A DNA stretch of 37,906 nt from an uncultured archaeon (GTDB lineage Archaea > Aenigmatarchaeota > Aenigmatarchaeia > QMZP01 > JAFGSV01): positions 1 through 37,906 of the forward strand of contig CAYUBD010000002.1 in NCBI GenBank assembly GCA_964442905.1, read 5' to 3'. The position numbers and the translations under genes were made by a program. Below the pieces are notes generated by a model, which made no database searches, was not told the origin of the DNA, and saw nothing but the letters and a program-made list of their open reading frames with translations. How positions within the stretch are numbered: position 1 is the stretch's first letter; each line of letters starts with the position of its first letter. Of this stretch, positions 4,248 to 36,200 are shown in pieces.

Positions 4248-4256
4248 CTTATCCTT
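4245..4256 (-). promoter_or_regulatory. Stop/start coupling junction (AAGGA TAA G ATG) between gene 2 and gene 3
   Basis: The minus strand reads AAA AAA GGA TAA g ATG TTG AGC. The TAA ends at 4249 and the ATG begins at 4247. A weak AGGA lies 4 nt upstream of the ATG. This is consistent with translational coupling. Confidence 0.5.
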
Positions 4257-15200: not shown

Positions 15201-18200
15201 AGGATGAATGATGTCAGACCGCTTACATCCAACGTGACATCGGTTCCGTCGGAAACCGAACGGTTCGAGTCAACAAGCACACCATTGACGGTGAGGTTGT
15301 AGTACAATGTGGTCCCGTTGCTGTTGTGGAATGTTATGTTGAAATAGTTCATGATGCCTGAGCCTTCTTCCGTTATCGTTTCGGTGTAGTTAAGGCCAGC
15401 ATCGCCAACGGACGCGTTGTGTATGAGTTCTATCGGCTGGAAAATTCCGGTTTCGTCAGTGAAGTCCGAATCGTCAGTGGTATTGAACTTGAAGTAAGCA
15501 AGGGGACCGTCGAGGTAATCCTGGCACATGAATGTTATGTCCATGTGTCCCGAGAAGTACTGCGGGAAGGTATTGGAGCACACGGGCGTACCGGTACTGG
15601 CGAGCGTCCTTCCATGGTATGCCTTAAGTGTCCACGAATCGGTGTCGAAGCTCTTCAGTATGGTTATGTTGTTGAAGTTCTGGTCCTGGTCATCTATGCA
15701 CATGTAGAAATCGTATTCCTCTCCCCACCCGCCTACGTAATGGTCTATTGCCGGATTGTAAAGGTCTGGTATATTTCCCAGGTAGAATGCGTTCGGCTTC
15801 AGCGTGACGTTGGTTTCATAATAATTTTCGCTTATCGTCTGCCTTGCATCATACCATCCTTTGGTGTACGAGCCCAGAGTCTGCCAGGAGCAGTTATACC
15901 AGCCACCGCCTTCCGTTTCATCCGTGCATGTGTACCAGCAGTAAGCCCCGATGCATGCATTTCTCTTGGTAGTTATGGTAAAGCTGTCCGCATTCAGTAC
16001 AGGGTAACCGCACTCTGTCACGTAGGTGCTTATGTTAACCCTTCCGCCCCTCTCGTATGATTCTCCGTCCGGTGCGACTATCTCCACGGCCATGTTGGAA
16101 TTAAGTATCCACGTCTCCACGGTCGAGTTCGTATCGAAATAATAGCTGTCATTGATTATACCTCCAAGCCAGTCATGTTCACCAACGACATAGAATGGTG
16201 TGTCCCCGCACTCGGGATTGAAGCTTATGTTAAGGTATCCGTTATCCGTGCTTAGGTCCCATCCGTCGTTGTAGTTGCTGCCGTTGTGTGTTGACCATAT
16301 CGTTCCGCTTCCTGATGGATCTACGGCCATGTCCCTGTCTGTATCCCATACGAGCAGACTGAAGTTTATCTCCTGCCCGCCGAATCTCCATACCTCGTTG
16401 CTCGGAGCCTCGTAGCCATCGACAACGATGATGGTAACGTTGTCCTTCTCTATCGTGAAGTTTATGGCCTGGGTCTGGTCGCTGTTTCCACACGCATCAT
16501 GGTCGCATTCGCTTTCGGTTGCAGTGAACCTGTATTCCCACACAACCTGCTGGTCCTGGAAAAGTGTCGGAACGTAAAGGGTCATGTTGACCGTGACATT
16601 TACCGGGGATGTCAGGACAGTGGTGTTCCTGGTGTCCCAGTCACCGGGTCCCTCACCGTATAGTCTTATCTGCAGGTTGACAGTGACATTGTCAAGGTCT
16701 TCATCAGTGACATTTACGTGGAAGCTCCACGTCTCTCCCCAGCCGCCTACGTCACCGCCCTGCTCTGAATACAATATCGGGTCTGAAAGCGCCGGGCTGG
16801 TAACTACATAGAAATGATCTGTGTAGTAGGCCGTTCCGTTGTAATAATAGTCTCTTGAGGCCGTTGATGTTGTGTTATACCATCTTGCACTGAGGATGGA
16901 AGTATTTATCTGGTAAAGGTATGTGCCGGTGCCATCTGCTATGGTGTCGTACGTATAGTTTTTCCCGCTCTCATGATTGAGTATAATTGTTATATTGCTG
17001 TATCCCAGCTGTTCGCAGTCATCATAATCGGGTGCGTGACCTGCTATGGTCACATTCTCTCCACGCTTGTAGAAGTACGGATCTAACGCCTCAAGTGTGT
17101 GGTTGAACTCCCCCATAATCAGTACTGTGAAGTTGTTTCCGCCAATCGTTACATTGGCATCCTTGTAGCACTGGTCGCTGTAGGTCCCGCCTTTCCAGTA
17201 CTGTGGTCCTACGGCATAATGCTGACACCAAGGATCGAACTCCAGTATCAGGTACCCCGAAGAGTTTGTAGTGTTCTCGTTGTAATCATGATATGTGTAG
17301 TTCTCACCGTCGGCAGTGACCCAGAATATCCCGTTAACACCTGAAACCACTGACATATTTTCCCGATCCGTGTCGTTTATCCTCACTATAAGCGTTGCGG
17401 TGTTCGTCAGCGCCCTGCTTACGTTCGTGTCATGGCCGTAAACATATGAGATGACGACGTCATCCTTCGTTATGTTGAGTCCGGTCTGGTTGCTGGTGTT
17501 GAACAGGTTAGTGCCGTCGTCTATCTCGAACAGATACCTCGTGTAATTGCTTATGTCTCCGCATGTGAAATCCGTGACCAGGATTGAGCAGTTGCCGACA
17601 CCACCGTAGACCGTTGTGTTGTCCTTCTTCAGCCAGGCCGAGCCGTTGTACACCCAGAGCCTGCATGACACGTTGTCATACTGCGTGTCGTTTATGAATA
17701 CAGTGTAGTTGAAGTCCTCGCCCCAGCCTCCGTCATCGTCGAATGCGACGCTGAATTCGGTAGCCGTTGGTGGTGTGTTGTTCAGGTATGTCCAGTTCAC
17801 CAGTATGCTGTTGTTTTCGTTCCAAAGAGTGCCGTTGTCCGAGAACATCCTGATGCTCCAGTTCCCGCCTATGTGGAAAGATGTATTCCATGAGCAGTTG
17901 TACCAGCCGTCGCCCTCGGCATTGAGCTGCTGGCAGTCTTCCCAGTCATCCTCAGGGGAGCCGAACTGCAATATCACGCTCGTTGCATTCACCAGGCCTT
18001 CATTCGAACAGTCCGTGGTTATGTTGAACCTTACCGTTAATATGTCTCCGACCTGTACGATTGTTCCCTCCGCGGGCTGTTCGATGTTATTGTAAAGCTG
18101 GCCGAATATATACGCATAAACATAAGATCCAGGGAATTCCGTATCCTCGTAGCAGGCATCACCATAAGCACCTGCCCACCAGCCCTGAAGGCCGACAGAG

Positions 18201-21200
18201 AAGCTGCAGTTCGGGTCGAAGTTGTGGTAGAAGCTTCCATTGGAAATGGTATTTGTTATGTTGTATATTATGTAGGTTCCTAGGTCTACAGGATTCGCTG
18301 TTGTCGAAACGCGGAATGCGGACTGCACGTTGCTGCCTACATTAACTTTAGACCGGTCTGTATCGTTTAGGTAAGCTCCTAACAATTTGTAGTCATTGCC
18401 ACTCCTGTTTATACTCGGCTGTAATTTCTCTCCCAAGTAGTGGATAACCAATGTATCATCCCTGAAGATAGTGAACGTGTTATTTGTTTCATTACTGTAG
18501 CCCCATAAATAGCTGGTAGAATTGAATTTATAGTCCTTTGTAGAGCTGGTCTGGCCCTGAAGGTCCGTGCATGTGAAGTTGTGGCTCCTGAACCTTATCC
18601 AGGTTCCAGAAGTGGAAGTGATGTTGGTCGAATTCCTGACCTCGAAAATGTCCGTTACATTTATGAGAAGCGAGACGTTCATCTTGTCGCCGTCGGCATT
18701 CCCCGACCGGACGTTGAACTCCCAGCTCTCTCCCCATCCGCCGTTACCGGCACCTCCTTCCCAAAGAGTGGATATAGCATCCGGAGTTGTCTGGAACTGG
18801 GGTACGGATGCCAGGTAGTATGCATCTTCCTTAAAAGTGTTTGTGCTGTTGTAATAAGACCTGTTGACCTCGCTTGTGATGTTGTGCCAGCCGTAAGACC
18901 AAAGGTCATCCTCAGGTACATTAGCTGGCACTGTGCAGTTATAGTTTCCATCTCCTTCATCATCAGCGAAGCCTGCCTGCGGGCACCTATATTGAGTGCC
19001 TCCTGTCGTGGACCAGAATACCACATCCGAATTGTTGAGAAGCCTGCATTCATCGCTTACGTTGGCCCTTATAAGGATAGGTTCTGTACCTCTCACATAG
19101 GGACCATAATCAGGTAAGGTTATGTTCACGATTAGCGGCTCTGTGACAACAGTCCAGTTGTAAACGTATGAGTATTTGTCCTGATACCATGGATTATCTA
19201 TGAGCCTTGCTCTCCAATAGTGTGGTCCAATCATGAAACTGCAGTTGATTCCATCCGGGTCAAGATCATTGGGGTGCTGTGTAGTAAGCACCCCACTTAC
19301 ATCTGTCTGCCCCGGTGGCAGCGGGGGTGTGGGTATCCTTATCCAGTTGTCATTTGAATCGGTCTTTGTGAACCAGAAGTCACCGAACCTGCTGTTTCCT
19401 ACATTGCCGCCTTTATCCGTATCCAAAAATTTCACCTGCCATGTGAACGCGCCGGAAGCACCCCTCGTGACAATACTGTCATTCCCTGCCACAAGCTCTC
19501 CCTGAACGTCGTCCTTTGTAAGGGTTATGTTGTTTTCCTGTGTTTCTGCATCATAGAAGCTGTCGGTAACGTTGAACTTGTAGTATATGGGATTGTTCTG
19601 CAGGTCGTTGCCGTCGAAATAGCTGACGAGCGTGAATGATACCATGGTCTCCTCTTTTGCATGAACGGAATCGTTGGAATCCGCAAGCACCCATGCGCCC
19701 GTAATGTTCAGCCAAAGATAGACAGTCAGCGTGTCGTTGTCCTCGTCCGTGGTATTGACACTGAACGTGAAATTCTCTCCCCAGCCGAAGGGAACGCCTG
19801 TCGGGTCACCCTGAGACGTGACGTTGGGATACTCTATTAGGGGAAGGGTCTCTATGAAGAAGGATGTGGAAGAGGTGTAAGGAACTGTTATTTCGTTCGG
19901 ATTGTAGTACTGCCTGGACGTGTTGACTATGGTGTCATATCCCATTGTGGGCATGCCTGTGCTGTTGAACGTGCAGTTGTATACGCCGTCGCCTATGTGG
20001 AACGTACCATTGCAGAGGAAGTACTGACCCGTGTTCAGGCTGTGCATCCTTATGGTTATGTTCTCTTCGGTGAGGTCTGTCATGTTGTTCCCGCATGTGT
20101 CGTTGACCTTCACCTGTATGGTGATGTTCTGGCCGCTTCCCCTGAGAAGCCTCTGGCCATTGGGATAAAGCAGATAGTTGGTGAGTGAGCCATTTATATT
20201 TACAGTGAAGTTTTCTGTTGCATTCCTGTCATAATACATGTCCGTTGCTTCAGCGTACCACTTCCTGACACCCGGGGCATACGAGCAGTTAGGCGCGAAG
20301 TTGTATTCGGCGTATCCGCTCGAATTCGTGAGTGTAAGGTTGCTCCAGTCCCAGACGCCTTCACTGAGTTCCGTCCAGAATGTTATATTCATAGTCTCGG
20401 GCTTGCTATGGTTGTCCGTGTCGTTTATCCTGAGTATGAATGTCGTGTATTCGCTGGCATCAGTCGTTATGTTTACCTTTGACCCGTTACCGATTATCTC
20501 AGTTATGGTTATGTTTGCCGGTTCAAGCACAGGACCTGATATTATGCTTGTGTTGTAGGTGTTGTTCTGCTCTATGTCCTCCACGGTGAAGAAGAAATAG
20601 TTGTCCGTGTCATAGCCCGAGCTGAAGTCAAGGTCGGTTTTTCTGAAGTCATCAAGCACTATGTAGCAGGTGCCGTCCCCTTCCGGAAGCGTCATCGTGC
20701 CGTTCATCGTCCAGTTCTGCTGTCCGTCGGTGCTTATCCAGAGCGTGCAGTTGGTCGTGTCGTTTTCAGGGTCAGATATCTGCATGGAGTAGTTGAACCA
20801 CCTCGTCCATCCATCCGAAGACGGCGCCACGGAGGGCGTAGTCTGGTTCTGAGGCTCTATGTTCTCGAGCCAGAACCAGTCCGCGAATTCGGTCTCGTTC
20901 TGGAAGTAAAGGTACTGGAAGCTGTCCGAGGACGTTATGTTTATCGTCCAGTTGCCCTCGTCGTGGTCCGTCGAATCCCAGGTGCAGTTGTAGAACGCCT
21001 GTCCCTCGTAGTTTAGGGGTGTGCACGTATCGTAATCTGTCGGTGAGAACAGTTCCACCTGTTTCGTCAGCTGAAGCTGGTATCCGGGGGATATGTCATC
21101 TATGGTCTCGTCACAGTCCCCGAGTATGCTGAAGTTCAGAAGTACCTGGTCCGTGACGTTGTAATCGGAGTGCTGCACCGGCTCATGAAGATAATTCATG

Positions 21201-24200
21201 AGCTGCCCCTTGACTGTTATTACCTGGTCACCAGTGTCGTTGTAGGCGTAGCAGACGTCGTTTGTTATCGAGAGGTTCCATGACTGCTCACCCGTGGTGT
21301 AGTTGCAGTCCGGATTGAACCTGTACAGGAACTGGCCGCTGGCGTTGGAGGAGGTGAAGTTCACCATATTGACGGTGTTGGTGTCATTCGTGATGAAATA
21401 GCTTGCGTTGGCAGCCGGATCGGAAACCGGTCTCAGCCTGTTCTCGTCGTAGGCGTACACTACGAGGTTCCTGAAATCGGAGCCAACCCTGCTCACGGTC
21501 GCGTCGGAGCCGCTCAGCACGGAAAGCGAGAGGTTGTCCTTGTATAACGTCACGTTGAAAATCTCTGTCTCGTTGTTCTTGCCCCACATGTTTGTGGCGT
21601 TGAACTTCAGGTACACGACGCCGTTCGTCTGGCTGTTGACATAATCATCGCAGCTGAAGTTCACATAGTATTCCAGCGTTGTCCACGTGGTGCTTTCAAC
21701 ATCGTACTGGGTATCCACATCATAGAACGGTCCTGCTTGGTCGTAGGCCTTCCAGAGAGTTATGTTGTCATAGTTTTCTCCTTCCCTGTCCTGGAATGAA
21801 ACGTTGAAGTTGAACTCATGGCCCCATCCTTCCCTGTCAGTGTCATTGACGACTGTCACTAGTTCTGGCCTTCTGACCAGCCTGAAAGCGTTGTCGATAC
21901 CGTCTTCGTCAGGATAGAAGTATTGTCCTATGCCGGCGTTTTGCTTTGTAGCGTTCATGCTCACGTTATACCACCCAAGAGGCAGCGTGGCAGTTGACCA
22001 CGTGCAGTTGTATGTGCCGTTGTTCATATCGTACACGTTTGCCCCTTCACAGAGGAATTCAACACCACCCGTGGCATACTTGACATGGAATGTTACAGAA
22101 GCGCCCGTTATATAGCCGCAGGAAGGATCAAGATCCTGCACAGTCGTATAGAGTTTGACTTCTTCCTCGTCCTTTATTATGTAAAGCTGCGGGGGGTTCA
22201 ACGTCGTGTTGAGTATGGACTCTACCGTCACGTTGTAGTAATCCGAGTATGCGTCGTAGTATCTTTCAGAACCGTTTACCTGGCCTCTCCACAACTGCCT
22301 CATCACATCGTAGCTGCAGTCGGGATTGAAGTTGGCAAACATGTAACCGGCACCGGTCACCACCATCTGGTAATAGAAGCTGAAATTTTCCAAGTCCTTT
22401 GTGACATAGAAAGCCCCCGGCACGTCGAGGAATCCGCTCAATGGTGGGCTTCCCGTGTAGTTGTCGTAGACCCTCAGCCTGAAATAGGTCTGGTTGCCGA
22501 AGGTCCTGTTGACATAGCTGTCGCTTCCGTTAAGGACAGTGAAGGTCAGGTTCCTCTTCGTCACGTTGAACGTGAAATTCCCAGGGTCCGCAAGGCTGTG
22601 GTTCCTGCCGTACTTGTCAGTCGCATTGACCATCCAGTAATAAGTGCCTATGTCGTTCCATGATGTGTATGTGTGTGTGAACGTCATAGTGTCGTTGTTG
22701 CAGTCAACGCAGTACTGGGGAGAACTGGATACCTGATACCATGGGCCGGAAGAGGACGCGTTCGAATGCCAGACCCTGACCGTGACATTGTCGTCGTCGT
22801 CCGTTACATTAACGTAGAACGTTATCCTCGATTTTGCTGCATTGGTTCCCCATTGTATGGATTTCTTGTCATTATATGCACCTGAAAGTACCGGGTCAAC
22901 CTCGTGGAAGAATGATTGTCTCAGTTCTATGTCTGGATTGTAGAGTGTCTTGTTAGAGCTTATCGTAACGTTGTACCATCCTGATGGGTTGCTTGATATG
23001 TTCCACGTGCAGTTGTATATGCCTCCGGTCCAGTTGAATACCGGCGTGCAGTATTCCTCGAATCCATTGTGGCTTATCTTCAGGCTGACATTGGCGTCGC
23101 TTATGTTGAACTCGCAGTCATTGCCGGTAACCTCATCGTTGACAGCGAATGTGACAGTTACGTTATCATCGGTGAGATAGATGTTGCTGTAATCTGTTCC
23201 GTTCGGTGTTATGAGCGTGTTGTTGAGCCATCCTATGACAGTGAACGTGTAGTTGACAGAATGGTTGTCCTTGTAGCATTTATTGCCTGTGCTTCCGCCG
23301 TACCACAGCTGGGTTCCTACATCGTGTGTGCAGTTGGGGGTAAAGAAGTAGTTGAGGTAGCTGTCGCTGTCCGTGGTGTTCTTTGTTCCGGAGTCGAAAT
23401 CGGACCCGTTATAGGTTACCCGGATAGTCCCGTTTATGCCGGATGAAACGTTATCCCCGCTGTCCGTGTCATACATCCAGAGTCTCAGATGGATTATTTC
23501 GGTCCTGTTAACCTCCGTGGAATTACCATAACCACCGTATCCTATGTCGACATCGTCCTTCTCTACTGTGAAGTTGAATGAAGGCCTGTCCGTAGTGTTA
23601 TGCGGGTCCGTGGCATTGAACTTGAAGTATCTGTATTGTCCTGTATCTGTTATGTTTTCGCATGTGAAGTTCTTGTAGAAGAACTGCATCTCACTTTCTG
23701 CAAGGCATTCCACGCATGTCTGGTTCTCTATCCATGTCCAGTTGATGTCTTCAGGCGAAAGCCAGAACTGGATGGTCACGTTCTCGGCATCTATATCTGT
23801 CACGTTCACAGTAAATGTGAAGTTCTCACCCCATCCACCACCGCTCTCGAAAATCACGCTCTCGTTCTTCAGGATTGGTGGTGAGAACTCATAAGGTATT
23901 ATCTTGAATGCGTGATATTTCGTCCTGCTGCCGTTGTTGAAGAAGCTTACGTTGCTGGCATTCATCTCTATGTTGAACCATCCGAAGCCGTCGCCTTCTA
24001 TCTGATCACCTGTCTGGCCATAGTTCCAGGTGCAGTTGTACGTGCCGTTGCCCTGATTGGTTATCGTTGATGTGCACCAGTACCTGAAGATTGGGTTGGC
24101 ATCGTTTATTATGGTGAAGTTTACGACAGAGACGTTTATGTATTCATCCATGCATTCACTGAGCACGTCACCGGATATGTTCAGGACGTTCTCTGCCGGG

Positions 24201-27200
24201 AAGATGCTGTATTCATATTCCGTGCCATTGGGCCATGTCACGTTCGGGTAAAGCTGACCGTTTACTGTCAGGTTGTACATTTCAGAGTTTGCGGCGAAGT
24301 AGCACTGCTCGGTCTTTATGTATGCAAACCACACCTGTTCCCCTTCGTCGTATGTGCATGCCGGATCGAAATCGTAGTTTATATGCCCTGTAGAGTTGGT
24401 CCTGTTGTAACCGTCATAGTTGTAGTCGCTGCCGTTCACAGTCACGTTGAAGTAAACTATCGGTAAGTCCTGCCCGGTGGTGTAGTACGCAGGCTGATTA
24501 TTGTTCGTGTCGTTGAGGTAAAGTATGAACCTTGAGAAATAGTCACCACCGACACTGTCATTCCTGCTGACATTGCTGTCGTTACCCAGTACATGTATGA
24601 ATTCGAGCGTATCCCTCGTGACCGTGAAGGTGCCTACCGGGGTCTGGGATTTCCCCTTGTCGTAGATGTCCACAGCATTGAACTTGAACCACCACGGTCC
24701 CCTGTCGTCACATGTGTAAGTCTCGTTGAAGTATATCATTTTGGTGTCTGAACTGAGTGTCACGTTCTGGCAGTTTGAATCATCATAAGATACGAAGTTG
24801 TCGTCAGAGATGTTAAGGCAGACGGTTACGTTGGTGTAGTGGCTCACATTTACGCTGAAATCGAATACATCTCCCCACCCGCCGCTGTCGGGAGTGACGT
24901 CCTCATCCTGAAGTGCTACCGGTGCCACGACGAAAATCCCGTAGTTGGTATCGCTGTCATTGTTGTGATAGTCCTTGTAAGAGAACATTGTGATGTTATA
25001 GTATCCTGAAGGTGCCGCTGAAGAGTTCCATACGCATTCATAGTAGTTACCGGTCGTATTGGTAACGAATGCAGCCGGAGACGGGCAGTAGAACGTAGAG
25101 CCGCTGCCTGTCGAGTTTATCATGAACCTGATGCTCGCATTCGCAAGGTCGTTGCTGCAGTCGTCGACAATAGTCCCGTTTAATGTCACGTTCTCTGACT
25201 GGTCGTAGTTCTGAAGTTCTGTCGGATTTGTCAGCGTGCTTACGACATCCCCGAATATCGTTATGGGGAAGTTTTCTGTCTCATAATCTATGTAGCATGG
25301 TGATGATATGTTGACCTTCCAGTTCCTCTTCCCTGGAACGTAAGAGCATGAAGCATTGAAATCATAATAGTAATGCGTCGTGTTGTTTATTTCGTTCACT
25401 GTCTGCCAGTCATCGGTATCCTTTTCTATCCTCGTGAAGACCTCTGTTGCATTGTTCAGTGCCACTGTGGTCTGGTTCTTTATGGTATCCCATATCTGGA
25501 AGGCGAGTTGTATTTCATGATATGTATTCAAATCTGACCTGTTTATCGCGGTGTCGTTTCCTCCAGTGACGTTTATCGTTATGTTCTCCTTCATGACTTC
25601 GAACTGCTCTGTGAGATTGTATGAGAAGCCTGCGGAGTCGTCGGCCATGAACATGACGTCCCAGTCGCCTATCTCGCCGCATGTGAAGTTCCTTGAGAAC
25701 TCTATGGGCTGTGTCCTGTTGCAGTCCGTGCAGACCGAGTAGTTGTAGAGCTGCCATGCCCCTCCGGTGTATGTGGAGTTGAGGTACATCGTCACGTTGA
25801 CCGTGTTATTGTCGTCATCGCTCACGTTCAGGGTGAAGTTGAACGGAGACTGGCCCCAGCATCCTGATGTGCCGGGCTCTATCCCTATCGCAGTGAGGTC
25901 TGGTATGCTGGCGAGGAAGAATGCGTTCTCAAGGAAGTAGGTGCCGTTCCAGTAGTCGTCTATATAGCTTCCTCCCGTGTATGCCAGCATGGTTACGTTG
26001 TACCATCCGAGTGGTGCTGAGCCGTCCGGGTTCCAGTTGTAGGTGTAGTAGTTTCCTGTCGTTGATCCCACCACCAGGGTATCGGAGTATGCACCGCTTT
26101 CGGCCGTGAACGAAACCGGGAAGTTGGTTATGCTTGACTTGTAGTCGGAGCAGTCGTCTGTGGATGTGCCGTTGAGTGTTATGGTGTAATTGGCTGACGG
26201 GCCCAGATCTGCTCTCGTGTAGTTCCTGGTAGTGTCAGGCGTTATCATGTCAGGGTGCAATGAGCCCATGAGCCAGAACGGTATGGCGTTGTACGGGTCA
26301 GGTTCCGTTATGTTGTCCTTGTAGCATGTTGCTGACAGGATGCCTCCCTTCCAGTAGTTCTGGCCGAGGTGGAATGTTCCTGTGGAGCCGGACCAGCCCT
26401 TGCACCAGTGGGTGGTGTCGTTGATCATCTCGTATATTATGTAGCCGGTGGAGTTGACCGGAGTAACGGGATAGTAGTTTTCATAGGTTTCATTGTTACC
26501 GGTCTTGGATACGCCTATGAAGGTCTCCCTGTAGTTGAGGGCATTGGGCACTGTCTGGTTGTCCGTGTCGTTGGCGAGGAGGGTGAAGTTGTATGGCTGC
26601 GACCTGTTCACGGTGATGTTCCAGGACGGGGTTATGTTGAAGACGTCGACGTCGTCCTGCTCTATGTTGTATATGTACTCGCTGGTGTTCAGGCTTCCGT
26701 CCGAGTTATTGGCACTGAAAAGATACTTCCATTCGCCTATGTCACCGCAGACATAGTCGTATGTCATGTTGACCTGTGTCCACGGAAGGCAGTCGACACA
26801 AAGGTATGTATCCACCAGGCTGTATGCGGCTGCGCCCTTCTTGTGATAAAGGTCTGTCGTGACATTCCTCCCGAACCTGTCCCTTACCATGACAGAGAAG
26901 TTCCATGGCTCACCCCAGCCTCCGAGCACATCCGGTTGGGTATCTATGGTCTCATTTTCTATCAACGGGAGATACTTGAAGACCCTAACCTTTGTGAATA
27001 GTTCCTGGGTCTCATTGAAAAGTTTGCCGTAATTCCACGTGTAGTTTATCATGTTAACGGCAACGCTGCTCTGAGGGGAATGCGTTGCATCAGCATGGCT
27101 GTTCAGGCTTATGGTCTGCGTTGTTCCCGTGAATGATTCCCATTCACCAACACTGTAATTCGACCATATCTCATCCTGGAAATCATCGAATTCGTGGTTC

Positions 27201-30200
27201 TGGCTTATTACATGGGCAGTTCCTTCATCATCCGTTATGTTGACGTATGATTCACCTATTGTCAGGTTTGTCCCTGAGTATGAGTAGTTGAGCCTGAACC
27301 TCATTTCACTGAGTTCCTGGTAGGGTTCGGAAGGTGAATCAAAGTTATAATCCTGAGAAGAGTGTATGTTAACAGTATCCTCGTAGGATGTTGAGTTTCT
27401 GGTTTCCTTTTCTGCATTCGGATAGAATATCTTCTTTCCTGTTGCTGTGCAATTGAGAGTAAAGTTGAGCCATGATGTCTCTCTTGAGGCTATGGACGGC
27501 AGCAGCCAGCTTATCGTGCTTTCAGATGGGCTGTATACTCCTGAGCTGTAGGCATGTGTCGCATTGCAGTCTGCAGGTATAACAACTGTTATGTTCCAGT
27601 CATTATTCTGCGTGGTTATGTCTCCTATATTGGTGACCTTGAGGCTGTGGTTATACTCCATATTCGGGAGTATGCTCCTTGGCTCGTACCATGGATATTC
27701 GCTCCTTTCATGAACATCGATGTCAAATTCAAGGTGGCTTTCACTGCTGTAGTTCATCGTGTAAAGTTGGAAAGGCTCATTCTCCTGGCTCTCTTTGAAT
27801 GAAATGCTGTCGTGCCACGAGAGGTTCCACCTGAACTCGCCCGGATTAGAAAGGTCTGTGGGTGCCTTTATCTTGTAGGTTGCAACTGCGTATTCGTTCT
27901 CGGTTACGGATGACTGGTTTGTGCCAAGGCTGGTATCTATGTACCATGTTATCGTGTTATAAGCTGGGTTTTCGAGATCCGTGCTTGCTGTATAGCTTAT
28001 TGAGCTTCCTTCGATCTGCGGGTTGAAGGGAATCCAGTCTGAAGGCATAACGTCTATAAGTGTTATCATTCCTTCCGCTATGCCGCAGCCCCCGTTGTGT
28101 ATAACGAGCGCAGACTCGAAGACCTTCCCGCCACCTATGACCTGAGGCGTCTCCCTTATTATCTCAAGGACAGATATCTGGTTTCCGTTCTCGAGGATCT
28201 CGCTCTCATTCACGGTCTGCTGTATGATTCCCGGATAGGTGTAGTTGGCCGTGACGTTAATCGTCATGTTCTCGTTGTTCTGTGAAGAGTTCAGCGTGAA
28301 TGTGACAGTCCGGTAACCTGGAGAATACATAGTTATCTCCTGATACGTGCTGTCCAGAATCCAGCCCGCTGAAACTTCCACGGATATGTTGTATGCGACT
28401 GTGTCATAGAATGGATGATAAAGCTCTACATCGAATGTTTTCTGGGTGCCGTTGCACCAGTAGTTGGGCAGAGTCAGTGAAATTTCTGGCGTGCCGTAAA
28501 CGAATGGTTCGCTTAGCATGTGGTCAGGTAGCTGGGAGTCGATATAGGCGTTCAGGCTGTACATTCCCTCGGGGTGACCGCTAAGGTTTATTGATGTGAA
28601 ATTCTCGTAATGCGTCGAGTTGTAGTTTATGACCACTCCTGTTCTTGTTGTTGAGTTTATGGCATCCCCAGATGAGTTGGTTACATTCAGCGTGATGTCT
28701 GCCGTGTATGAGACGTTTATCGGATTATCTATCCCTACTGAAACATTGAAAATGCTGTCGGAAGGCCGGGTTCCCTTCGTAGCATAACCATTTACCTCAG
28801 GCATTATGTCTATTACCTTCATCGTGGGCCTGTAGTAGGCCTCAAATTCCATGGAATTGACTGTCACATTGGAGCCGTCGGCGCTCAATCTCGCCAGGCA
28901 GAATCCCGTGCCGTTCGGCGCGACCTGTGCTTTTAGCAGGGATATGTCGATGTTCTCGGTTCCGCTCACCAGCCTGCTGTGCACCACGTCTATCCATGCG
29001 GTCGAGTTGTAAACTTCAACCATTGCGGTGCCTCCGGAAGAGGTCCAGCCAACGCTGATGTTGCCGACCCTGTAGTCCCCGGCTTCGCACGGGAAGCTGA
29101 AAACATTGGGCGAACCGGGTGTCACGTTCACGGGTGTTGTTTCTACAGCGCTCACGCTCTCCAGCAGCTTGTATATTATCAGGGATGTCTGGTTATCGTC
29201 GGTATAATTGTAGTGCGGGGCCGGCGCCGAGGTGTTTGCGCTGACATTTATGTCGAATGGATAAAGGTAGGGTACTACGTCTGTGGCGTTGACGTTCCAG
29301 TATACATACTCGAATGATGTAGAACCGACACCGGAACTTATGGTCCCGACATACTGGACTGAACCTTCAGCAGTCTCCCATCCATGCGTCAGAAGAGTGG
29401 CATTCACGTTCGTGGCGCTCCTGTCTTTCACCTGTATCGTCGCGTTAAGACCAAACCACCTGTACTGGAAGGCCTCTCCTGGTGTATAGAGGGTGGTGAC
29501 ATTGAACTCCGGACACTGCATCTGAAGTGTCACATTGTAAACAGAAGAATATGAACTCTGATAGTACGGATCTGAAGGGCCTGCAATCACCCTCCACTTC
29601 TGCTTCCCTGGATCGTAAACGCAGGATGCCAGGAACTCGTAATTCACATAGCCTGTCGTGTTTGTCCAGTTGGAGCCATCCACCAGATAACTGTCATCGT
29701 TTTCGGTGACCTCGAACTGTATGGTCGCATTCGGTATTGATGACGAGAGAATCTCTCCACTGTCTGTATCATTCACGAGTATTATGAAAGTTGTGGGTGC
29801 AGTCTTGTTGGTCGTTGTTTCATTTCCGTAAACGTATATGAACTCGACATCGTCTTTTTCAACATAGAATGTCTCATTGTCATCCACGTAATCATTAGCC
29901 GACGTTATGTTCGTGGTGTAGTTATTTCCTTCAGTATCCGTTGCATTGAACTTGAAATACCATAGATCAACATCATCATAGTTGAATTCATAAGTCCAGT
30001 TAAGCTGAACGTTGTTGCAGCTCTTGCATTCCTGTGAACTACTGACTTCATTCCATACGGAAGTACCGTTCTTGAGTATCCACATTCTTACAGTCGCGTT
30101 GTCACCAAGATCTGTGACGTTTACCGTGAATGTCTTGTTGATGGACCATCCCTCATTTCTGGGCGTGACGTTTGAATACTGAAGCCTTGGTATCATGGTG

Positions 30201-33200
30201 AGCGAGAACGCGTTCTCCTTGGTGTAGGTATCGTTGTTGTAGAATGATTTGTATGACAGCATTGTTATGTTGTAAGCGCCTGAAAGCGAGCCCCAGGAAG
30301 ACCAGTTGCATGTGTACACGTTTCCTGTATCATTCATTACCCATCCCGTGGCGTTGGGGCAGTAACCTGAGCTTGTGCCGTTTACTATGAACCTCACATT
30401 AGCGCCTGATATGGGATTTCCGCAGGAGTCCGTTATATTGCCTGTGATTGTTACGTTTGTCCCGGCATCGAAAACCTCTCCGTTGGGCTCTGATATCTGG
30501 TTGTTCAGGTATCCCAGTATGATGAGTTCGAATATGTCCGTTTCATTGTCCTTGTAGCAGGGCTGATCGCTTATGTTCATCTTCCACGAACTCGTGTGGG
30601 GTGTATAGTTGCATGTAGCATTGAAGTCATGTGCATATATGCCTGAACCGGGTGTGACCACAGTCCCGTTATCCCAGTCCGTGCTGTTTTCCATGACATA
30701 CAGGATGACCTCCGGCTGTGTGGTATTGGCCTGGGCATCAAAGTCATAGACGTATGATGACAGCGTCACAAGCGAGGATATGTTGACCGTGCCTCCGTCA
30801 CCGGAAAGGTGTGTGATGTTCACTGTGTCTTTCGTAATCGTGTGGCTGTTTTCCTGTGAGCTGGCGTTGTTGTCGTGCGTGTCAGTGGAGTTGAAGAAGA
30901 ACTGCCATGTAGTGAGGTTGCTGGAATCACCTGCGGTGCACGCATACATTTTCTGGAAACTGACAGTCGTGTTGTCGCAGTCCGTGCACTGGTCATTTGT
31001 CTGGAATTCCCAGCCGGATGTGACGGTAGAATTCAGGTAGAAGTTTACAGTGACCGTATCGTTGTCTTCATCTGTAATGTTAATCGTGTAGTTGTATGTC
31101 CTGTTCCAGCCTCCGCTGCTGGGTATGACTGCCGGATACTGCAGGATCGGAGCAGATGAAAGGAAGAAATAGCTGTAGTCCGTATCATGGTTGTAATAGC
31201 TCCTGTTGGTATACACGGTTGCGTTGTAGTCTCCCACGAGCATTCCTGTTGTCGAGTATGTGCAGTTGTACCATCCGTATCCCTCTTCATTTATGGATGC
31301 ACACTGGTAATTCTGTCCTGTTTCATGTGTCAGGTTGAAGTATATTTCGCTGCTGCTGTACTGGAGCCCTGTTACGTTTTCTCCGCACTCGTCTTCCACG
31401 TGCACCCTGAGGAATATGTCTTCCTGTCCTACCGTGTAGTTGGTATTGCCGTCTGGATTCGTGAGATTTGCGTCAATATCGCCCCATATGTAAACCGTGA
31501 ACTCCTGTGACTCGTTGTCCGTGTAGCACGTGTCGCCGCTGACATTGAACTTCCAGTTCCTGACTCCCGGTTCGTATGCACAGCCGGGATTGAACGTGTT
31601 ATAGTAGAAGTTCGTTGTATTCAGAACAGGTGTCTCCTCGTTCCAGGAACTGCCAGAAGTCTCGGCCCATGAATGAACGTTCGAGGTGCTTATGCCTGTT
31701 ATTGTCTCGTCGAGTATAGTGTCATTTATCATAACCGAGAGATTATGTCTGTATCCCTCTTTGGTGTCGGACCTGTTTATATCCGCTCCGTCGCCATCAT
31801 AAAGATTTATCGTTATGTTCTCCTTCATGACTTCGAACTGCTCTGTGAGATTGTATGAGAAGCCTGCGGAGTCGTCGGCCATGAACATGACGTCCCAGTC
31901 GCCTATCTCGCCGCATGTGAAGTTCCTTGAGAACTCTATGGGCTGTGTCCTGTTGCAGTCCGTGCAGACCGAGTAGTTGTAGAGCTGCCATGCCCCTCCG
32001 GTGTATGTGGAGTTGAGGTACATCGTCACGTTGACCGTGTTATTGTCGTCATCGCTCACGTTCAGGGTGAAGTTGAACGGAGACTGGCCCCAGCATCCTG
32101 ATGTGCCGGGCTCTATCCCTATCGCAGTGAGGTCTGGTATGCTGGCGAGGAAGAATGCGTTCTCAAGGAAGTAGGTGCCGTTCCAGTAGTCGTCTATATA
32201 GCTTCCTCCCGTGTATGCCAGCATGGTTACGTTGTACCATCCGAGTGGTGCTGAGCCGTCCGGGTTCCAGTTGTAGGTGTAGTAGTTTCCTGTCGTTGAT
32301 CCCACCACCAGGGTATCGGAGTATGCACCGCTTTCGGCCGTGAACGAAACCGGGAAGTTGGTTATGCTTGACTTGTAGTCGGAGCAGTCGTCTGTGGATG
32401 TGCCGTTGAGTGTTATGGTGTAATTGGCTGACGGGCCCAGATCTGCTCTCGTGTAGTTCCTGGTAGTGTCAGGCGTTATCATGTCAGGGTGCAATGAGCC
32501 CATGAGCCAGAACGGTATGGCGTTGTACGGGTCAGGTTCCGTTATGTTGTCCTTGTAGCATGTTGCTGACAGGATGCCTCCCTTCCAGTAGTTCTGGCCG
32601 AGGTGGAATGTTCCTGTGGAGCCGGACCAGCCCTTGCACCAGTGGGTGGTGTCGTTGATCATCTCGTATATTATGTAGCCGGTGGAGTTGACCGGAGTAA
32701 CGGGATAGTAGTTTTCATAGGTTTCATTGTTACCGGTCTTGGATACGCCTATGAAGGTCTCCCTGTAGTTGAGGGCATTGGGCACTGTCTGGTTGTCCGT
32801 GTCGTTGGCGAGGAGGGTGAAGTTGTATGGCTGCGACCTGTTCACGGTGATGTTCCAGGACGGGGTTATGTTGAAGACGTCGACGTCGTCCTGCTCAATC
32901 AGATAATCGTCGTCTGTTACATAGTCCCCGTTTCCTGTTGTCGTCTCTGTTGTATAGTTCCCGTCCTCAATGACAGTCATGTTGAACTTGTATTCCCATA
33001 TTCCCTTGTCGTTGCAATCGTGTGTATATGAGAAATTTATCTGGGTCCAGTCAGTGCAGGGAGAACATGTGAAAGAGCTTATACTCTGATAGCTTCCGAG
33101 AGGCGGCTTAAGCCAAAGGCTGACGTTTACATCCCTTGAGAACCTATCCATCGTTTCTACCGAGAAGTTCCAGTCCTCACCCCAGCCGCCTGTCTCCCTT

Positions 33201-36200
33201 GTCATATTGGCGTTCCTTACGAGCGGGTTGAACTGGTACTGCTTTACTTTTGCAAACAGTTCCTGGGTCTCTTCGAACAGGTTCCCGTAATCCCATGTGT
33301 AGTTGATCTGGTTTATGGTAACATTTCCAATTGGATTCTGCGTGCCGTCTGCATGCGCGTAAAGGTTTATCGGCCTTACGTTGCTTACAAAACCGGCTGA
33401 TGGATAGTATAACACCGAATGGGAACCGCTGGTATCCCCTGCGCTGTGGTTATACCATGTGTATCTCTCCGTACTGTCATCGTCAACCATGTAGGCATAG
33501 CCTTCGCCTATCGTGAGGTTTGTCGCTGAGAAATCATAAAGTATGCTGAGGTTTATGTTCGAAAGCCTCTCATAAGGCTGTGACGGGTCCGTGAAAACCG
33601 GGTTGACGGTCGTGCTGCACTCCTCGCCTGAACATGTGTAGTAAACGTCGTCACTGTAGCTTGACTGGTTGGTGGTATCCCGTGTTGCCGTGACGTAGAA
33701 CATCTGCTTCTCGGTCTGGGTGCAGTTTACCGTGACATTATGCCTTATGATGCTTCTGCTGCCGAGTCCTGACACGTTCCATCTCACGGTGTTTGAAACG
33801 GCATTATAAACTCCGTCGTCATAAACTGCCAGTATCTCACATGCATGTGGCACTGAAAGGTTGACGCTCCAGTTGTTCGCTGCAATATCTCCTATGTTCG
33901 TTATCTTCAGGCTGAAGTTGTAGCTGTGATTTGCCTGGACCGTCTTGGGCTCCGGCCACGGGAATTCTGATCTCTGATTGGCCTCGAGAAGGAACTCGAG
34001 GTGGGATTCGCCTGTGTAGTTGGCTGTCTGGAAATCATGCTCTTCATACTCCGAAAGTTCCTTGTCGCTGTCGTAAGTGAGGTTCCATAAGGCATAACCG
34101 GTCTCGCCGCTTCCGGGCGGTGCCTTTATCTGGTAAGTGAGAAGCGCGTATTGGTTTTCGTCTATGGTGCCAAGCACCCATTCCAGTATGTTCTCTTCAA
34201 GGTCCACGCTGGATGATACGAGTTCCACATCGCCGCTTAGTCCGGGGTTCGCCGGAGTCCATCCTGATTTTATGTTATCCTGAATTGCCACGCCGCTTAT
34301 CTGCGCACAGCCCTTGTTGTGTATCGTTATGGCTCCCTCGAATACCTTGCTGCTCGACACGTATACCGGTGTCTCCCTTATGACCTCGAGCACGCCGTGG
34401 TTGTCGTTTTCTATGTTTATGCTCGTATTTTCACTGTACTGCTTGTGCGGAAGCTGGTAAACCACTGAAACGTTTATGGTTCCGTCTTCCGTTGATAATG
34501 GAGACGTCACATTGAACTCTGCTGCGTATGAAGTTATCCCGGTGGCGCTTATGGTCCTCTGGGAAGGCTGGTATGACCATCCAGATGGCACCTCAAGCGT
34601 GACGTTGTACTCAACATCCTCATCATACTGGTTGGATAAAACCACGTAAACGTCGTCTGTATCCTCCGGGCATATGAAGGGGTTGTACCATGTCTCATAG
34701 CTTATGTTCTCCTTTGTCAGGCTTTCATTAATCACGCTGACGTTACCGTCGTAAGAAAGATACGCCATTATGGTATACGTCCCGTCCCAGGAAACGATGT
34801 CTATGTTCTCTATGCTCTCCGTAGAGAATGAATCCGCTCCTATTGAAGGCTGTATGTATGTGGAATTGACCACGGTGCCGCTTTCATCAGTTATGTTCAC
34901 CCATAGATCCGGATTTATTGTGTGATTATGGGAATTCAGTACGGTCACATTGACATTAAGCGAGGTGTCATAGCCGTCAAGGCTGTATGTCTCGGTTGAT
35001 GATATGTAGGGCATTATTCCGAGCACATACGCTTTACTTTCAAGATAGCTCGTCATGTTGGCAGAGTTCACGGTTATGGTGCTGTCGCCTATGTTCTCGA
35101 ACTTGAGTATGCACAGTCCGCTGCCGTTGGGAGTGACATGCTGTCCTGGAATTCTTAGCTCTCTGTAGAGGTTCCCATTTATGATTTCGTAGTTGAGTAT
35201 CTCGTTGAAGGATGTGGAATTGTATGCGTAAATCCTGAAAGCGCTTTCGGAACCTGAATCCATGCTGATTGAGAATGTCTCAAGCCTGTAGTCTCCGGAC
35301 ATGCAGGGGAAGGTGAGGTCTGAAGAATCGCCTGAAGCTACTGGTATGGGGAATGGGTTCGTAGACTGTGACCAGTTATACTTGTAGTTCGTGGTGATGA
35401 AATCCACAGTGTCTTCAGTCCCGTAAGAGTTGTTTGCCTTTATGGTGACATTGAACGTGCCTTCTGTCGTGCCGTTCACGGTCCATGTTACGGTCTCGGG
35501 TGAACCAAGGTTAACGGTTCCAAGATACCTGACCCTGTCGTCGACGTCCCATTCTGGAGGGACATCGAGCGTGGCGTACACGTCGCTCGAATCTCCGATG
35601 TACGTTGCGATTGTAGCTTTTATAGTGAAGTTGTCATACTGAAGAGTCTCATCCGGATGGTAGTAGAAATCAATGGAGGGATTGGCCTGGCAGTTAGAAA
35701 GGTCCAGCGTTATCGTGAGGTTCTCTGATTCATTGTAGTTGTACGCATCATCCGTGGCGGATATCCTTGCGCGCCATATCTGCTGGCCGTCGACATAGTC
35801 GCATGATGGAAGGAAGAGTATCTCCGCCTTTCCGTCCGGGTCAGTCTGGGCGGTGCCTATCTCCTTGCTCCCACCGCTATAACCACTGTCAAGCACCTCG
35901 AATACCACATCTGCAGGCGTGCTGTGATTGTAGGTCTGGGCTATCAGGTCATAAACCCTTACTGAAAGGTTGACGGATACGGAAGTCGATGGATTGGTAT
36001 CGTTCCCTGAATGGTATTCAACAGAGACGTTGTCCTTCGTTATCGTGAACGTGTCGAAGCCGCCCGTTGCTTCAGAGGATAGCTCGTACTTGTAGAACCA
36101 GTTGCCCACATCATCGTAACTGAAGTTGTTGTACCAGTATATTGTCTCGTTTATGCAGTCCGGATAAGCGCAGGATACAATGGTCTGGTTTACGCATGTG

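Follow-up and report, generated by a model that had tools for sequence, protein, structure and literature searches.

The locus studied here raises the question of how two modules of one gene, 5,143 nt of unique sequence apart, came to be identical at every nucleotide. In the window (the whole 37,906-nt stretch of DNA that was analyzed), direct string comparison of positions 25572-26662 and 31806-32896 gives 1,091 nt with 0 mismatches, and the exact match cannot be extended by even 1 base on either side. Both copies lie in one minus-strand ORF, 6281..37780, each beginning at codon position 1, and they are offset by 6,234 nt (3 x 2,078). An earlier note on this DNA had claimed both the perfect 1,091-bp identity and an offset of 3 x 2,078 nt, which we recovered, and the peptide ends it reported (EQDDVDVFNITPS ... 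FEVMKENITIN) are right for the minus-strand translation. The pair is probably the product of gene conversion that acted episodically, within the gene for a giant surface glycoprotein of the Aenigmarchaeota (DPANN), on two positional paralogues of ancient origin.

A giant surface protein with an identical pair of modules

The features of the gene are given below. The aa numbers are counted from position 37780 and are relative only, since the gene continues beyond the window end.

6281..37906, minus strand: giant ORF, not closed at the right end, with at least 10,541 codons in the window; 6281..37780 gives at least 10,499 aa
32897..36013, minus strand: upstream paralogous block 1, a split module with a large insert before the N-proximal copy, aa 590-1628
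31806..32896, minus strand: N-proximal copy, aa 1629-1992, exact match to 25572-26662, one HMM module period
26663..31805, minus strand: inter-copy interval, 5,143 nt, unique, with module tiling; spanned in frame by the orthologue on contig L002 of a related genome
26663..29833, minus strand: upstream paralogous block 2, a split module with a large insert before the C-proximal copy, aa 2650-3706
25572..26662, minus strand: C-proximal copy, aa 3707-4070, exact match to 31806-32896
7391..7474, minus strand: single transmembrane segment followed by RKKKKSK, aa ~10102-10130, the highest Kyte-Doolittle window of the protein
6551..7303, minus strand: cytoplasmic C-terminal HerA-like P-loop ATPase domain, with Pfam and PDB matches

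Positions 37781-37906 hold no stop codon in the frame of the giant ORF, which thus leaves the window and has its N-terminus beyond it. The window codes for three proteins only: the giant ORF product, a coiled-coil protein, and another surface protein. One of the proteins neighboring the giant ORF is 666 aa long. The ectodomain of the giant protein has 622 N-x-S/T sequons against 186 +/- 12 expected from shuffles, and contains about 20 tandem modules with three beta-sandwich domains apiece. A module HMM made from the protein itself tiles aa 263-7499 into these modules. The AF2 model of a copy has the three beta-sandwich domains (mean pLDDT 84.7), and Foldseek matches the modules to MG, Ig, FN3, and cadherin arrays. 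The C-terminal domain scores 31.3 bits with Pfam HerA_C (cutoff 22) and 29.1 bits with DUF87 (cutoff 23.2), and matches HerA structures in the PDB with E values of 5e-7 to 4e-3. The product is best explained as a putative giant surface protein, anchored in the membrane and heavily N-glycosylated, of an Aenigmarchaeota-like (DPANN) archaeon.

By the HMM, modules end at precisely aa 1992 and aa 4070 and begin about 7-9 aa past the start of the repeat, so the claim that each copy encodes exactly one module holds to within a few residues. All other pairs among the 15 complete modules are 17-35% identical in aa sequence (median 24%), and adjacent modules are 23-35% identical. Because no other module pair exceeds that 17-35% background, a chance origin of the identity is excluded.

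The repeat ends abruptly in anciently diverged sequence

The flanks of the two copies had been described as homologous but clearly diverged, as they are: upstream they share 23-45% aa identity and downstream 26-42%, with dS saturated on both sides. Ungapped nucleotide identity at the offset falls to 19-41% within 150 nt of each copy end. The step from 100% identity to dS-saturated paralogous flanks takes at most one codon. We looked in the flanks for a dS gradient toward the tract and found none, with saturation right up to the edge. The repeat is thus a discrete segment within anciently diverged sequence, and its 3' edge is kept within 7 nt in three lineages.

The interval 26663..31805 comprises two ordinary modules and the second split module with its insert of about 800 aa. 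The two blocks that precede the copies, aa 590-1628 and aa 2650-3706, are 23-45% identical with dS saturated. A 2,078-aa super-repeat was considered and rejected, as specific paralogy is confined to the block with the insert that lies upstream of each copy; downstream of the copies, the modules (aa 1994 vs aa 4072) are 29% identical, no closer than random module pairs.

Both positions are older than the divergence of the compared genomes

Comparison with orthologues, to which the earlier note had pointed as a check, found that relatives share both positions, the orthologous flanks, and the same 3' boundary. One of them is PL23a_bin.95, a related MAG (MEGAHIT, k99) with 72-76% nucleotide identity to the window and dS > 1. 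Three of its contigs are collinear with the window across both positions:

L003: matches window positions 37906..32628
L002: matches window positions 31906..26394
L004: matches window positions 25672..14607

L003 and L002 have an exact 99-nt suffix in common, and L002 shares an exact 99-nt prefix with L004. Such 99-mers are the branch points that a k=99 graph is expected to have if exact sequence is common to both positions in PL23a; they demonstrate exact sharing over at least 99 nt at each module end only. The PL23a copies are 80-84% identical to the window over the matching stretches. L002 keeps the 5,513-nt span that the window has between equivalent points, in frame, so the two-copy layout is conserved; this conserved layout and spacing argue that the full-length form is probably the one maintained. 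In their first 170 nt the PL23a copies are 71% identical to each other, while directly upstream identity is about 40% and the sequences are unalignable. This step indicates that the 5' edge is ancestral and that homogenization has been partial and recurrent. PL23a has independently homogenized the same module pair.

The contig L001 from another MAG, CAZXIU (SPAdes), stops at R1084, 7 nt short of the shared 3' boundary, which agrees within 7 nt among the window, PL23a, and CAZXIU. L001 covers the context of the N-proximal position, and that of the C-proximal position is covered by L002 (end), L004 (start), L007, and L010. With orthologous flanks at each, both paralogous positions are older than the divergence of the compared genomes. 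The window copies are 100% identical to each other and 75-81% identical to L001, L007, and L010; paralogues within the genome are closer than either is to orthologues elsewhere, as in concerted evolution. Assignment of modules to an N type or a C type by four-taxon comparison gave a weak and mosaic signal, and the 5' variants EQDDVD and EKDDTD are spread mosaically over positions and species.

L007 (JAGLVE) is the closest relative. Its 3' flank is 90-96% identical to the window with a dS of 0.32, while the module is 59-87% identical (mean about 80%) with a dS of 0.73, which puts a conversion after the split of the window and L007 lineages. This step in identity and the mosaic 5' variants hint at actual transfers between positions. 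The earlier note had proposed very recent conversion or duplication. Recent conversion stands as the best reading, but a duplication in a single event does not suffice, with both positions present in relatives at dS > 1 and PL23a homogenized on its own.

Against distant relatives the module is more conserved than its surroundings (dN 0.16-0.17, compared to 0.21-0.33 for the flanks). Homogenization does not appear to be universal among relatives. The L007 and L010 contigs cross the module boundaries without a break, consistent with modules that have not been homogenized. The 22 kb examined of a homologue on L011, a 160-kb long-read-style contig, contained no long repeat, which also speaks against a universal phenomenon. 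A search with the module returned no near-identical protein, and a metagenome scan found distant homologues only.

Elevated GC3 and a second identical module pair

The module has a GC content of 0.535 and a GC3 of 0.752. The mean GC3 of the gene is 0.621 +/- 0.044, and only 1% of same-size windows in the gene reach the value of the module. Orthologues of the module are also GC3-rich (L001, 0.719; L007, 0.717) relative to flanks at 0.57-0.65. The non-repeated module at aa 5422-5760 has a GC3 equal to that of the repeat in the window, though not in its PL23a orthologue. Codon or amino-acid preferences could account for the excess; GC-biased conversion is its likely cause.

A similar case was found in L005, a homologue with 35% aa identity and a GC content of 38%. 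It has a perfect 963-nt in-frame repeat with copies 3,096 nt apart. The repeat involves a different module pair from that in the window, its edges are equally sharp at domain linkers, and its GC3 is the highest of 128 windows. L005 is an independent analogue of the window pair.

A model for recurrent conversion

We propose that each copy represents the module following one of two ancient blocks, each composed of a split module and an insert. A module-sized unit with fixed boundaries would have been shared by both positions before the sampled lineages split. Later re-homogenization would have been episodic, through intragenic non-allelic gene conversion with varying tracts and directions, in which homologous-recombination repair used the other copy as template. 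In the window lineage the latest event would have been very recent and have spanned the whole 1,091 nt. The recombination is presumably of the RadA type, and crossovers between the copies probably can also occur. Flanks as diverged as these would not support heteroduplex, which would keep the boundaries sharp; indels are found in the linker beside the 5' edge. A point against conversion is that the copies may have been about 20% diverged when it acted.

If the copies crossed over with each other, the interval 26663..31805 and one copy would be lost or doubled together, 2,078 aa in frame. This is a sound prediction, and length variation arising by such deletion or duplication is plausible. Crossover products make no new junction.

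Alternative explanations

The pair could instead be a selected recombination cassette, in which crossover toggles the fiber length by 2,078 aa in frame, with length or phase variation in the population as the result, or both positions need an identical binding surface. Homologous recombination deletes or duplicates sequence efficiently between direct repeats of 1.1 kb. The lower dN of the module relative to its flanks and the second, independent perfect repeat in L005 also speak for this reading, as do the blocks of Ig-like domains by which giant proteins of related DPANN archaea differ; in the passages available of PMC10266531, two nanohaloarchaeal proteins differ by a 529-aa stretch, for instance. 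We nevertheless consider a selected cassette quite unlikely: no length variant was observed (junctions alone cannot reveal one), the two-copy layout and spacing are conserved across species, L007 and L010 are apparently not homogenized, and neutral self-sustaining conversion accounts for the data without selection. A wider version of the idea is that DPANN attachment proteins actively keep non-adjacent modules identical, by the recurrent, boundary-respecting, GC-biased process suggested by the window and L005, as in-frame cassettes that vary the host-contact fiber. It is unlikely to be right. If true, the fiber with which a symbiont population contacts its host could change in length or composition, and the two loci would be the first locus-level evidence of GC-biased gene conversion in DPANN archaea.

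An assembly artifact could take the form of one true copy with a false 6.2-kb loop, or of differing copies printed as identical after bubble collapse. Short-read resolution of a path A-R-B-R-C prints one edge two times, which keeps 100% identity from counting as independent evidence, and the MEGAHIT and SPAdes assemblies of relatives break here, as expected of a repeat that is hard to assemble. However, all four junctions are in frame and in module register. Segment B is joined to R at both ends, which leaves A-R-B-R-C as the sole linear path using B, and in independent assemblies of relatives the orthologues of the four junction contexts follow one another as in the window and keep the 5,513-nt span. 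With those assemblies branching at the same places, it is very unlikely that the repeat itself is the artifact that the earlier note had allowed for. What survives is only a weak form, with near-identical copies in place of identical ones: the exact identity could be a consensus collapse, with a few real SNPs masked by one graph edge traversed twice. The biology would be unchanged.

A single recent event with no ongoing process, by which one position received the module from the other a single time through duplication or replacement shortly before sampling, agrees with the absence of differences between the copies, the razor-sharp edges at domain linkers, and a module further than its flank from the closest relative. 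It is highly improbable given that in PL23a (dS > 1) the homology of the two positions begins and ends at the same boundaries, that PL23a has exact tracts of its own, that CAZXIU branches at the identical 3' boundary, and that orthologues share the raised GC3, unexpected from a one-off recent copy.

A diversity-generating retroelement was rejected, its TR/VR pair being short (~100-150 nt) and differing at adenines compared to 1,091 nt with 0 mismatches here, and no reverse-transcriptase Pfam match was found in the scanned window proteins; a mobile element or inverted-repeat origin was rejected as well, with no inverted repeats or extra ORFs found.

Comparison with known systems

Recurrent gene conversion between the two positions, which we favor, would be a clean and datable case of non-allelic conversion in a lineage of uncultured archaea with reduced genomes, where very little is known of recombination. 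It suggests that in the module arrays of host-contact proteins most modules diverge freely and an occasional pair is repeatedly overwritten. It also bears on assembly, as these giant genes fragment in short-read MAGs because the repeat is precisely where contigs stop. The paired GC3 signal makes biased gene conversion in archaea open to testing, and variants differing in length by 2,078 aa in frame are predicted from the 1.1-kb direct repeat.

The protein itself resembles the giant membrane-anchored SPEARE-type proteins of Nanohaloarchaeota (8,880-9,409 aa), for which the passages available of PMC10266531 propose a role in host attachment. As described there, these share with the window protein a DPANN host, a membrane anchor, a linked ATPase domain of the HerA/FtsK/VirB4 superfamily, and tandem Ig/FN3-like domains that make up an ectodomain of about 9-10 thousand aa. 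We found the same combination in the window: a very large tandem Ig-like ectodomain, an anchor, and an ATPase domain of that superfamily. The likeness is drawn from descriptions in those passages. Unlike the proteins they describe, the window protein is from an Aenigmarchaeota-like phylum and its ATPase fits HerA models, not VirB4/TraG. A perfect internal module repeat is not mentioned in those passages.

GC-biased gene conversion in prokaryotes was reported by Lassalle et al. 2015 (PMC4450053). As there, a segment with a recombination history has a GC3 above its surroundings, seen twice independently here (the window and L005). The published evidence is for allelic recombination in bacterial genomes, whereas the present case would be non-allelic, intragenic, and archaeal, and its support consists of two loci.

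Intragenic homogenization of repeats is also a feature of bacterial adhesins of the alpha-C/Rib and Aap/SasG types. Long repeats of the spidroins AcSp1 and MaSp are homogenized within the gene as well (PMC3563967, PMC3933166, PMC9779670). Common to both groups and the window are units near-identical in nucleotide sequence, with lengths of several hundred bp or about 1 kb, their place in a very long gene whose product is extracellular and either structural or adhesive, and the capacity of recombination between units to alter length. In spidroins and adhesins, however, whole tandem arrays of adjacent units are homogenized. The window has no adjacent head-to-tail identical units; its array is diverged (17-35% aa identity) and holds one identical pair 6.2 kb apart.

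Concerted evolution by gene conversion is also known for tuf genes and rRNA operons. Recurrent or long-lasting concerted evolution by this means was described for prokaryotic paralogues by Wang & Chen 2018 (PMC6053082), and archaeal mtrA duplicates also undergo gene conversion (PMC4632066, which has no text on tract boundaries or GC). The window pair shares with prokaryotic paralogue conversion copies that are identical within the genome and about 20% diverged from orthologues, positions that predate speciation, sharp tract edges, and homogenization that recurs in separate lineages. Unlike those separate genes, it consists of two non-adjacent modules of one ORF. It affects 1 of about 20 module positions, its host is a DPANN archaeon, and conversion seems to come in episodes that let the copies drift to about 20-30% divergence, and not continuously. 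Against this background the window pair is a clear instance of intragenic concerted evolution, though one with precedents.

Two distant modules of one gene are identical

Direct string comparison of 25572-26662 with 31806-32896 found 0 mismatches over 1,091 nt as assembled, at an offset of 6,234 nt, as the earlier note had claimed. The match is not extendable by even one base at either edge. Only one long open reading frame (ORF) covers both copies, each of which begins in it at codon position 1, and the peptide ends quoted previously are correct in that minus-strand frame.

6281..37780, minus strand: the ORF, 10,499 aa
31806-32896, minus strand: N copy of the repeat, aa 1629-1992
25572-26662, minus strand: C copy of the repeat, aa 3707-4070
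6284-7474, minus strand: TM helix and cytoplasmic HerA-like P-loop ATPase (Walker A AGSTGAGKS; Walker B IIFDEVH)

With an iterative self-built HMM, aa 263-7499 resolve into ~20 contiguous modules of ~320-360 aa each, two of them split by ~800-aa inserts (aa 590-1635 and aa 2650-3714). The HMM-defined modules end exactly at aa 1992 and 4070 and start 7-9 aa past the repeat start; the tract therefore spans a single module period, and one module per copy holds exactly at the ends but not at the starts. Pairs among the 15 complete modules share 17-35% protein identity (median 24%), the sole exception being this pair at 100%.

The flanks had been described as homologous but diverged. This is right. 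The blocks upstream of both copies (split module plus insert) are specific paralogues with 23-45% aa identity; the downstream modules resemble each other no more than any two modules do. NG86 dS stays at or above 1.1, or cannot be calculated, in both flanks as far as the boundary itself, and shows no gradient. A multi-codon indel distinguishes the two contexts at the 5' edge, where they are unalignable; nucleotide identity drops at the 3' edge to roughly 45%.

The gene encodes a giant surface protein

The minus strand of 37781-37906 has no in-frame stop, leaving the ORF open upstream of the listed ATG, and the first residues align to a module end, a mid-module start without a signal peptide. 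In L001 (L001:1-5291), a SPAdes contig from a CAZXIU relative covering the N context, the orthologous ORF stays open upstream for another 1,763 codons or more. The gene therefore runs off the window and is longer than seen here; the real protein may exceed 12,000 aa.

The first 10,100 aa contain 622 N-x-S/T sequons, where shuffles give 186 +/- 12, and the last 370 aa, the cytoplasmic tail, contain just one, implying that N-glycosylation of the predicted ectodomain (aa 1-10100) would be extremely dense. The single strongly hydrophobic segment (aa ~10102-10126) is followed by RKKKKSK. The C-terminal 370 aa score above Pfam cutoffs for HerA_C and DUF87 and also match solved HerA ATPases, so a ~10,000-aa ectodomain is fused to a motor-type ATPase. 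AlphaFold models the repeated module as three beta-sandwich domains (mean pLDDT 84.7). Foldseek matches this model to macroglobulin, Ig, FN3 and cadherin-type arrays and to a bacterial giant adhesin. Among named relatives, proteins from Candidatus Aenigmarchaeota MAGs come nearest.

Another domain of ~100 aa (…YFNITVENLNGTT.YYNLTVNG…) occurs in four copies, three clustered and the fourth ~1,600 aa downstream, with 51-75% aa identity and up to 82-90% nt identity over 70-238 nt. It is a second, less extreme group of unusually similar units.

14262-15346 and 9350-9587, minus strand: ~100-aa domain, aa ~7450-7850 and 9375-9480

A nine-glycine run, PPPERGGGGGGGGGAGAIS, seen in translation alone, separates the last ectodomain repeats from the membrane-proximal region (aa ~9858-9870, window ~8171-8209, minus strand). 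Two minus-strand genes, 2-4259 and 4249-6249, follow the giant gene. One product is an acidic coiled-coil protein of 666 aa that is rich in lysine and glutamate and weakly matches DUF7365; the other is a further large surface protein, also rich in sequons, of at least 1,419 aa, cut by the window's left end, with an N-terminal hydrophobic signal-like segment.

A related genome also shares sequence between the two positions

Orthologous contigs were taken from a scan of species-representative genomes. Three come from PL23a_bin.95, assembled with MEGAHIT (contig names k99). L003 corresponds to window 37906..32628 and stops 269 nt inside the N copy. L002 begins 100 nt before the N-copy end, covers the full inter-copy interval, and stops after the first 269 nt of the C copy. 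L004 begins 100 nt before the C-copy end. L003 and L002 end in one identical 99-nt suffix; L002 and L004 start with one identical 99-nt prefix. Where a k=99 de Bruijn graph branches, it leaves overlaps of this kind. Despite only 72-76% identity to the window and a between-species dS >1, PL23a too has sequence that agrees exactly between these two positions. From N-copy position 991 to C-copy position 269 is 5,513 nt in both genomes, and their 3' boundaries lie 2 nt apart. In PL23a, homology between the copies sets in at the codon where it does in the window; over the first 170 nt the PL23a copies are 71% identical, and directly upstream identity is ~40%. L001 also ends within the module, at position 1084/1091. 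EQDDVD, EKDDTD and similar variants recur as a mosaic across positions and species.

An assembler walking one collapsed edge twice would print identical copies. However, independent assemblies support the existence of two copies, their order and their in-frame junctions, and an assembly artefact therefore survives only in a weak form, in which the printed copies are identical though the true ones may differ.

Because the gene fragments at its repeats, short contigs of the family are scattered over several MAGs. L010 (JBQSHS010000059.1; P0005), a C-context orthologue, was deposited under a 'Candidatus Thorarchaeota' MAG, while its closest relatives are Aenigmarchaeota proteins; the label is probably a binning or labelling issue.

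The module and its flank have different histories

L007 (JAGLVE010000536.1), a 1,265-nt contig from the Aenigmarchaeota MAG GCA_023134045.1, covers C-copy module positions 157-1091 and 333 nt of C-context flank. Compared with the window, its flank is 90-96% identical (dS 0.32) and its module 59-87%, mean ~80% (dS 0.73). Vertical descent predicts equal similarity, so the excess would mean that after the window/L007 split the C copy of at least one lineage was replaced by a ~20%-diverged paralogue. Against the distant relatives L001 and L010, module dN (0.16-0.17) is lower than flank dN (0.21-0.33). The four-sequence comparison within the module is star-like with a weak mosaic signal. Together these patterns fit episodic conversion, varying in extent and direction, rather than continuous homogenisation or a single event.

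Base composition and a second locus

The module has a GC of 0.535 and a GC3 of 0.752, a value reached by just 1% of the gene's 290 other in-frame windows of equal size (mean 0.621 +/- 0.044). Orthologous modules are similar (L001 0.719, L007 0.717, versus 0.57-0.65 in flanks). The one other high-GC3 module in the window has a PL23a counterpart without high GC3.

A 35%-identical homologue, L005, on a 135-kb metagenome contig (GC 38%), likewise carries a perfect in-frame repeat, 963 nt long (321 codons; 15682-16644 and 18778-19740, spacing 3,096 nt), with flanks at random-level identity. It involves another module pair in another register, running from a domain-2/domain-3 linker to the next such linker; the L005 modules at window-equivalent positions are 27% identical. 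Repeat GC3 (0.410) exceeds that of all 127 other windows (mean 0.340 +/- 0.028). GC-biased conversion (PMC4450053) would produce such an excess, as seen at these two loci, and its retention in orthologues is possibly the footprint of this process in an archaeon. The third homologous locus, L011, had no long repeat within the 22 kb examined.

Recurrent conversion as the best explanation

The best explanation is that two ancient positional paralogues have undergone recurrent, non-allelic intragenic gene conversion, with the last such event in the window's lineage probably very recent. The earlier note offered recent conversion or duplication, or an artefact. Very recent conversion stands, but the episodic pattern argues against a single event and the independent assemblies against all but the weak artefact. 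Tract edges at domain linkers could arise because linker indels stop heteroduplex extension or because selection removes chimeric domains; both fit.

The predicted deletion or duplication variants of 2,078 aa are mechanistically reasonable and would leave no novel junction. As the two-copy layout is conserved, it may be the full-length form that is maintained.

The repeat is real, and adds a well-supported new case to an evolutionary process already known. What is unusual is the setting, non-adjacent modules within a giant (>10,500 aa) surface protein of a DPANN archaeon. The pattern is classical for concerted evolution (PMC6053082), of which PMC4632066 gives an archaeal example. In architecture the protein is like the giant, membrane-anchored SPEARE proteins of Nanohaloarchaeota, which likewise combine Ig-like arrays with an ATPase of the same superfamily (PMC10266531). 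A secretion role has been proposed for SPEARE proteins. Intragenic homogenisation in other giant fibre genes parallels the window pair (PMC3563967, PMC3933166).
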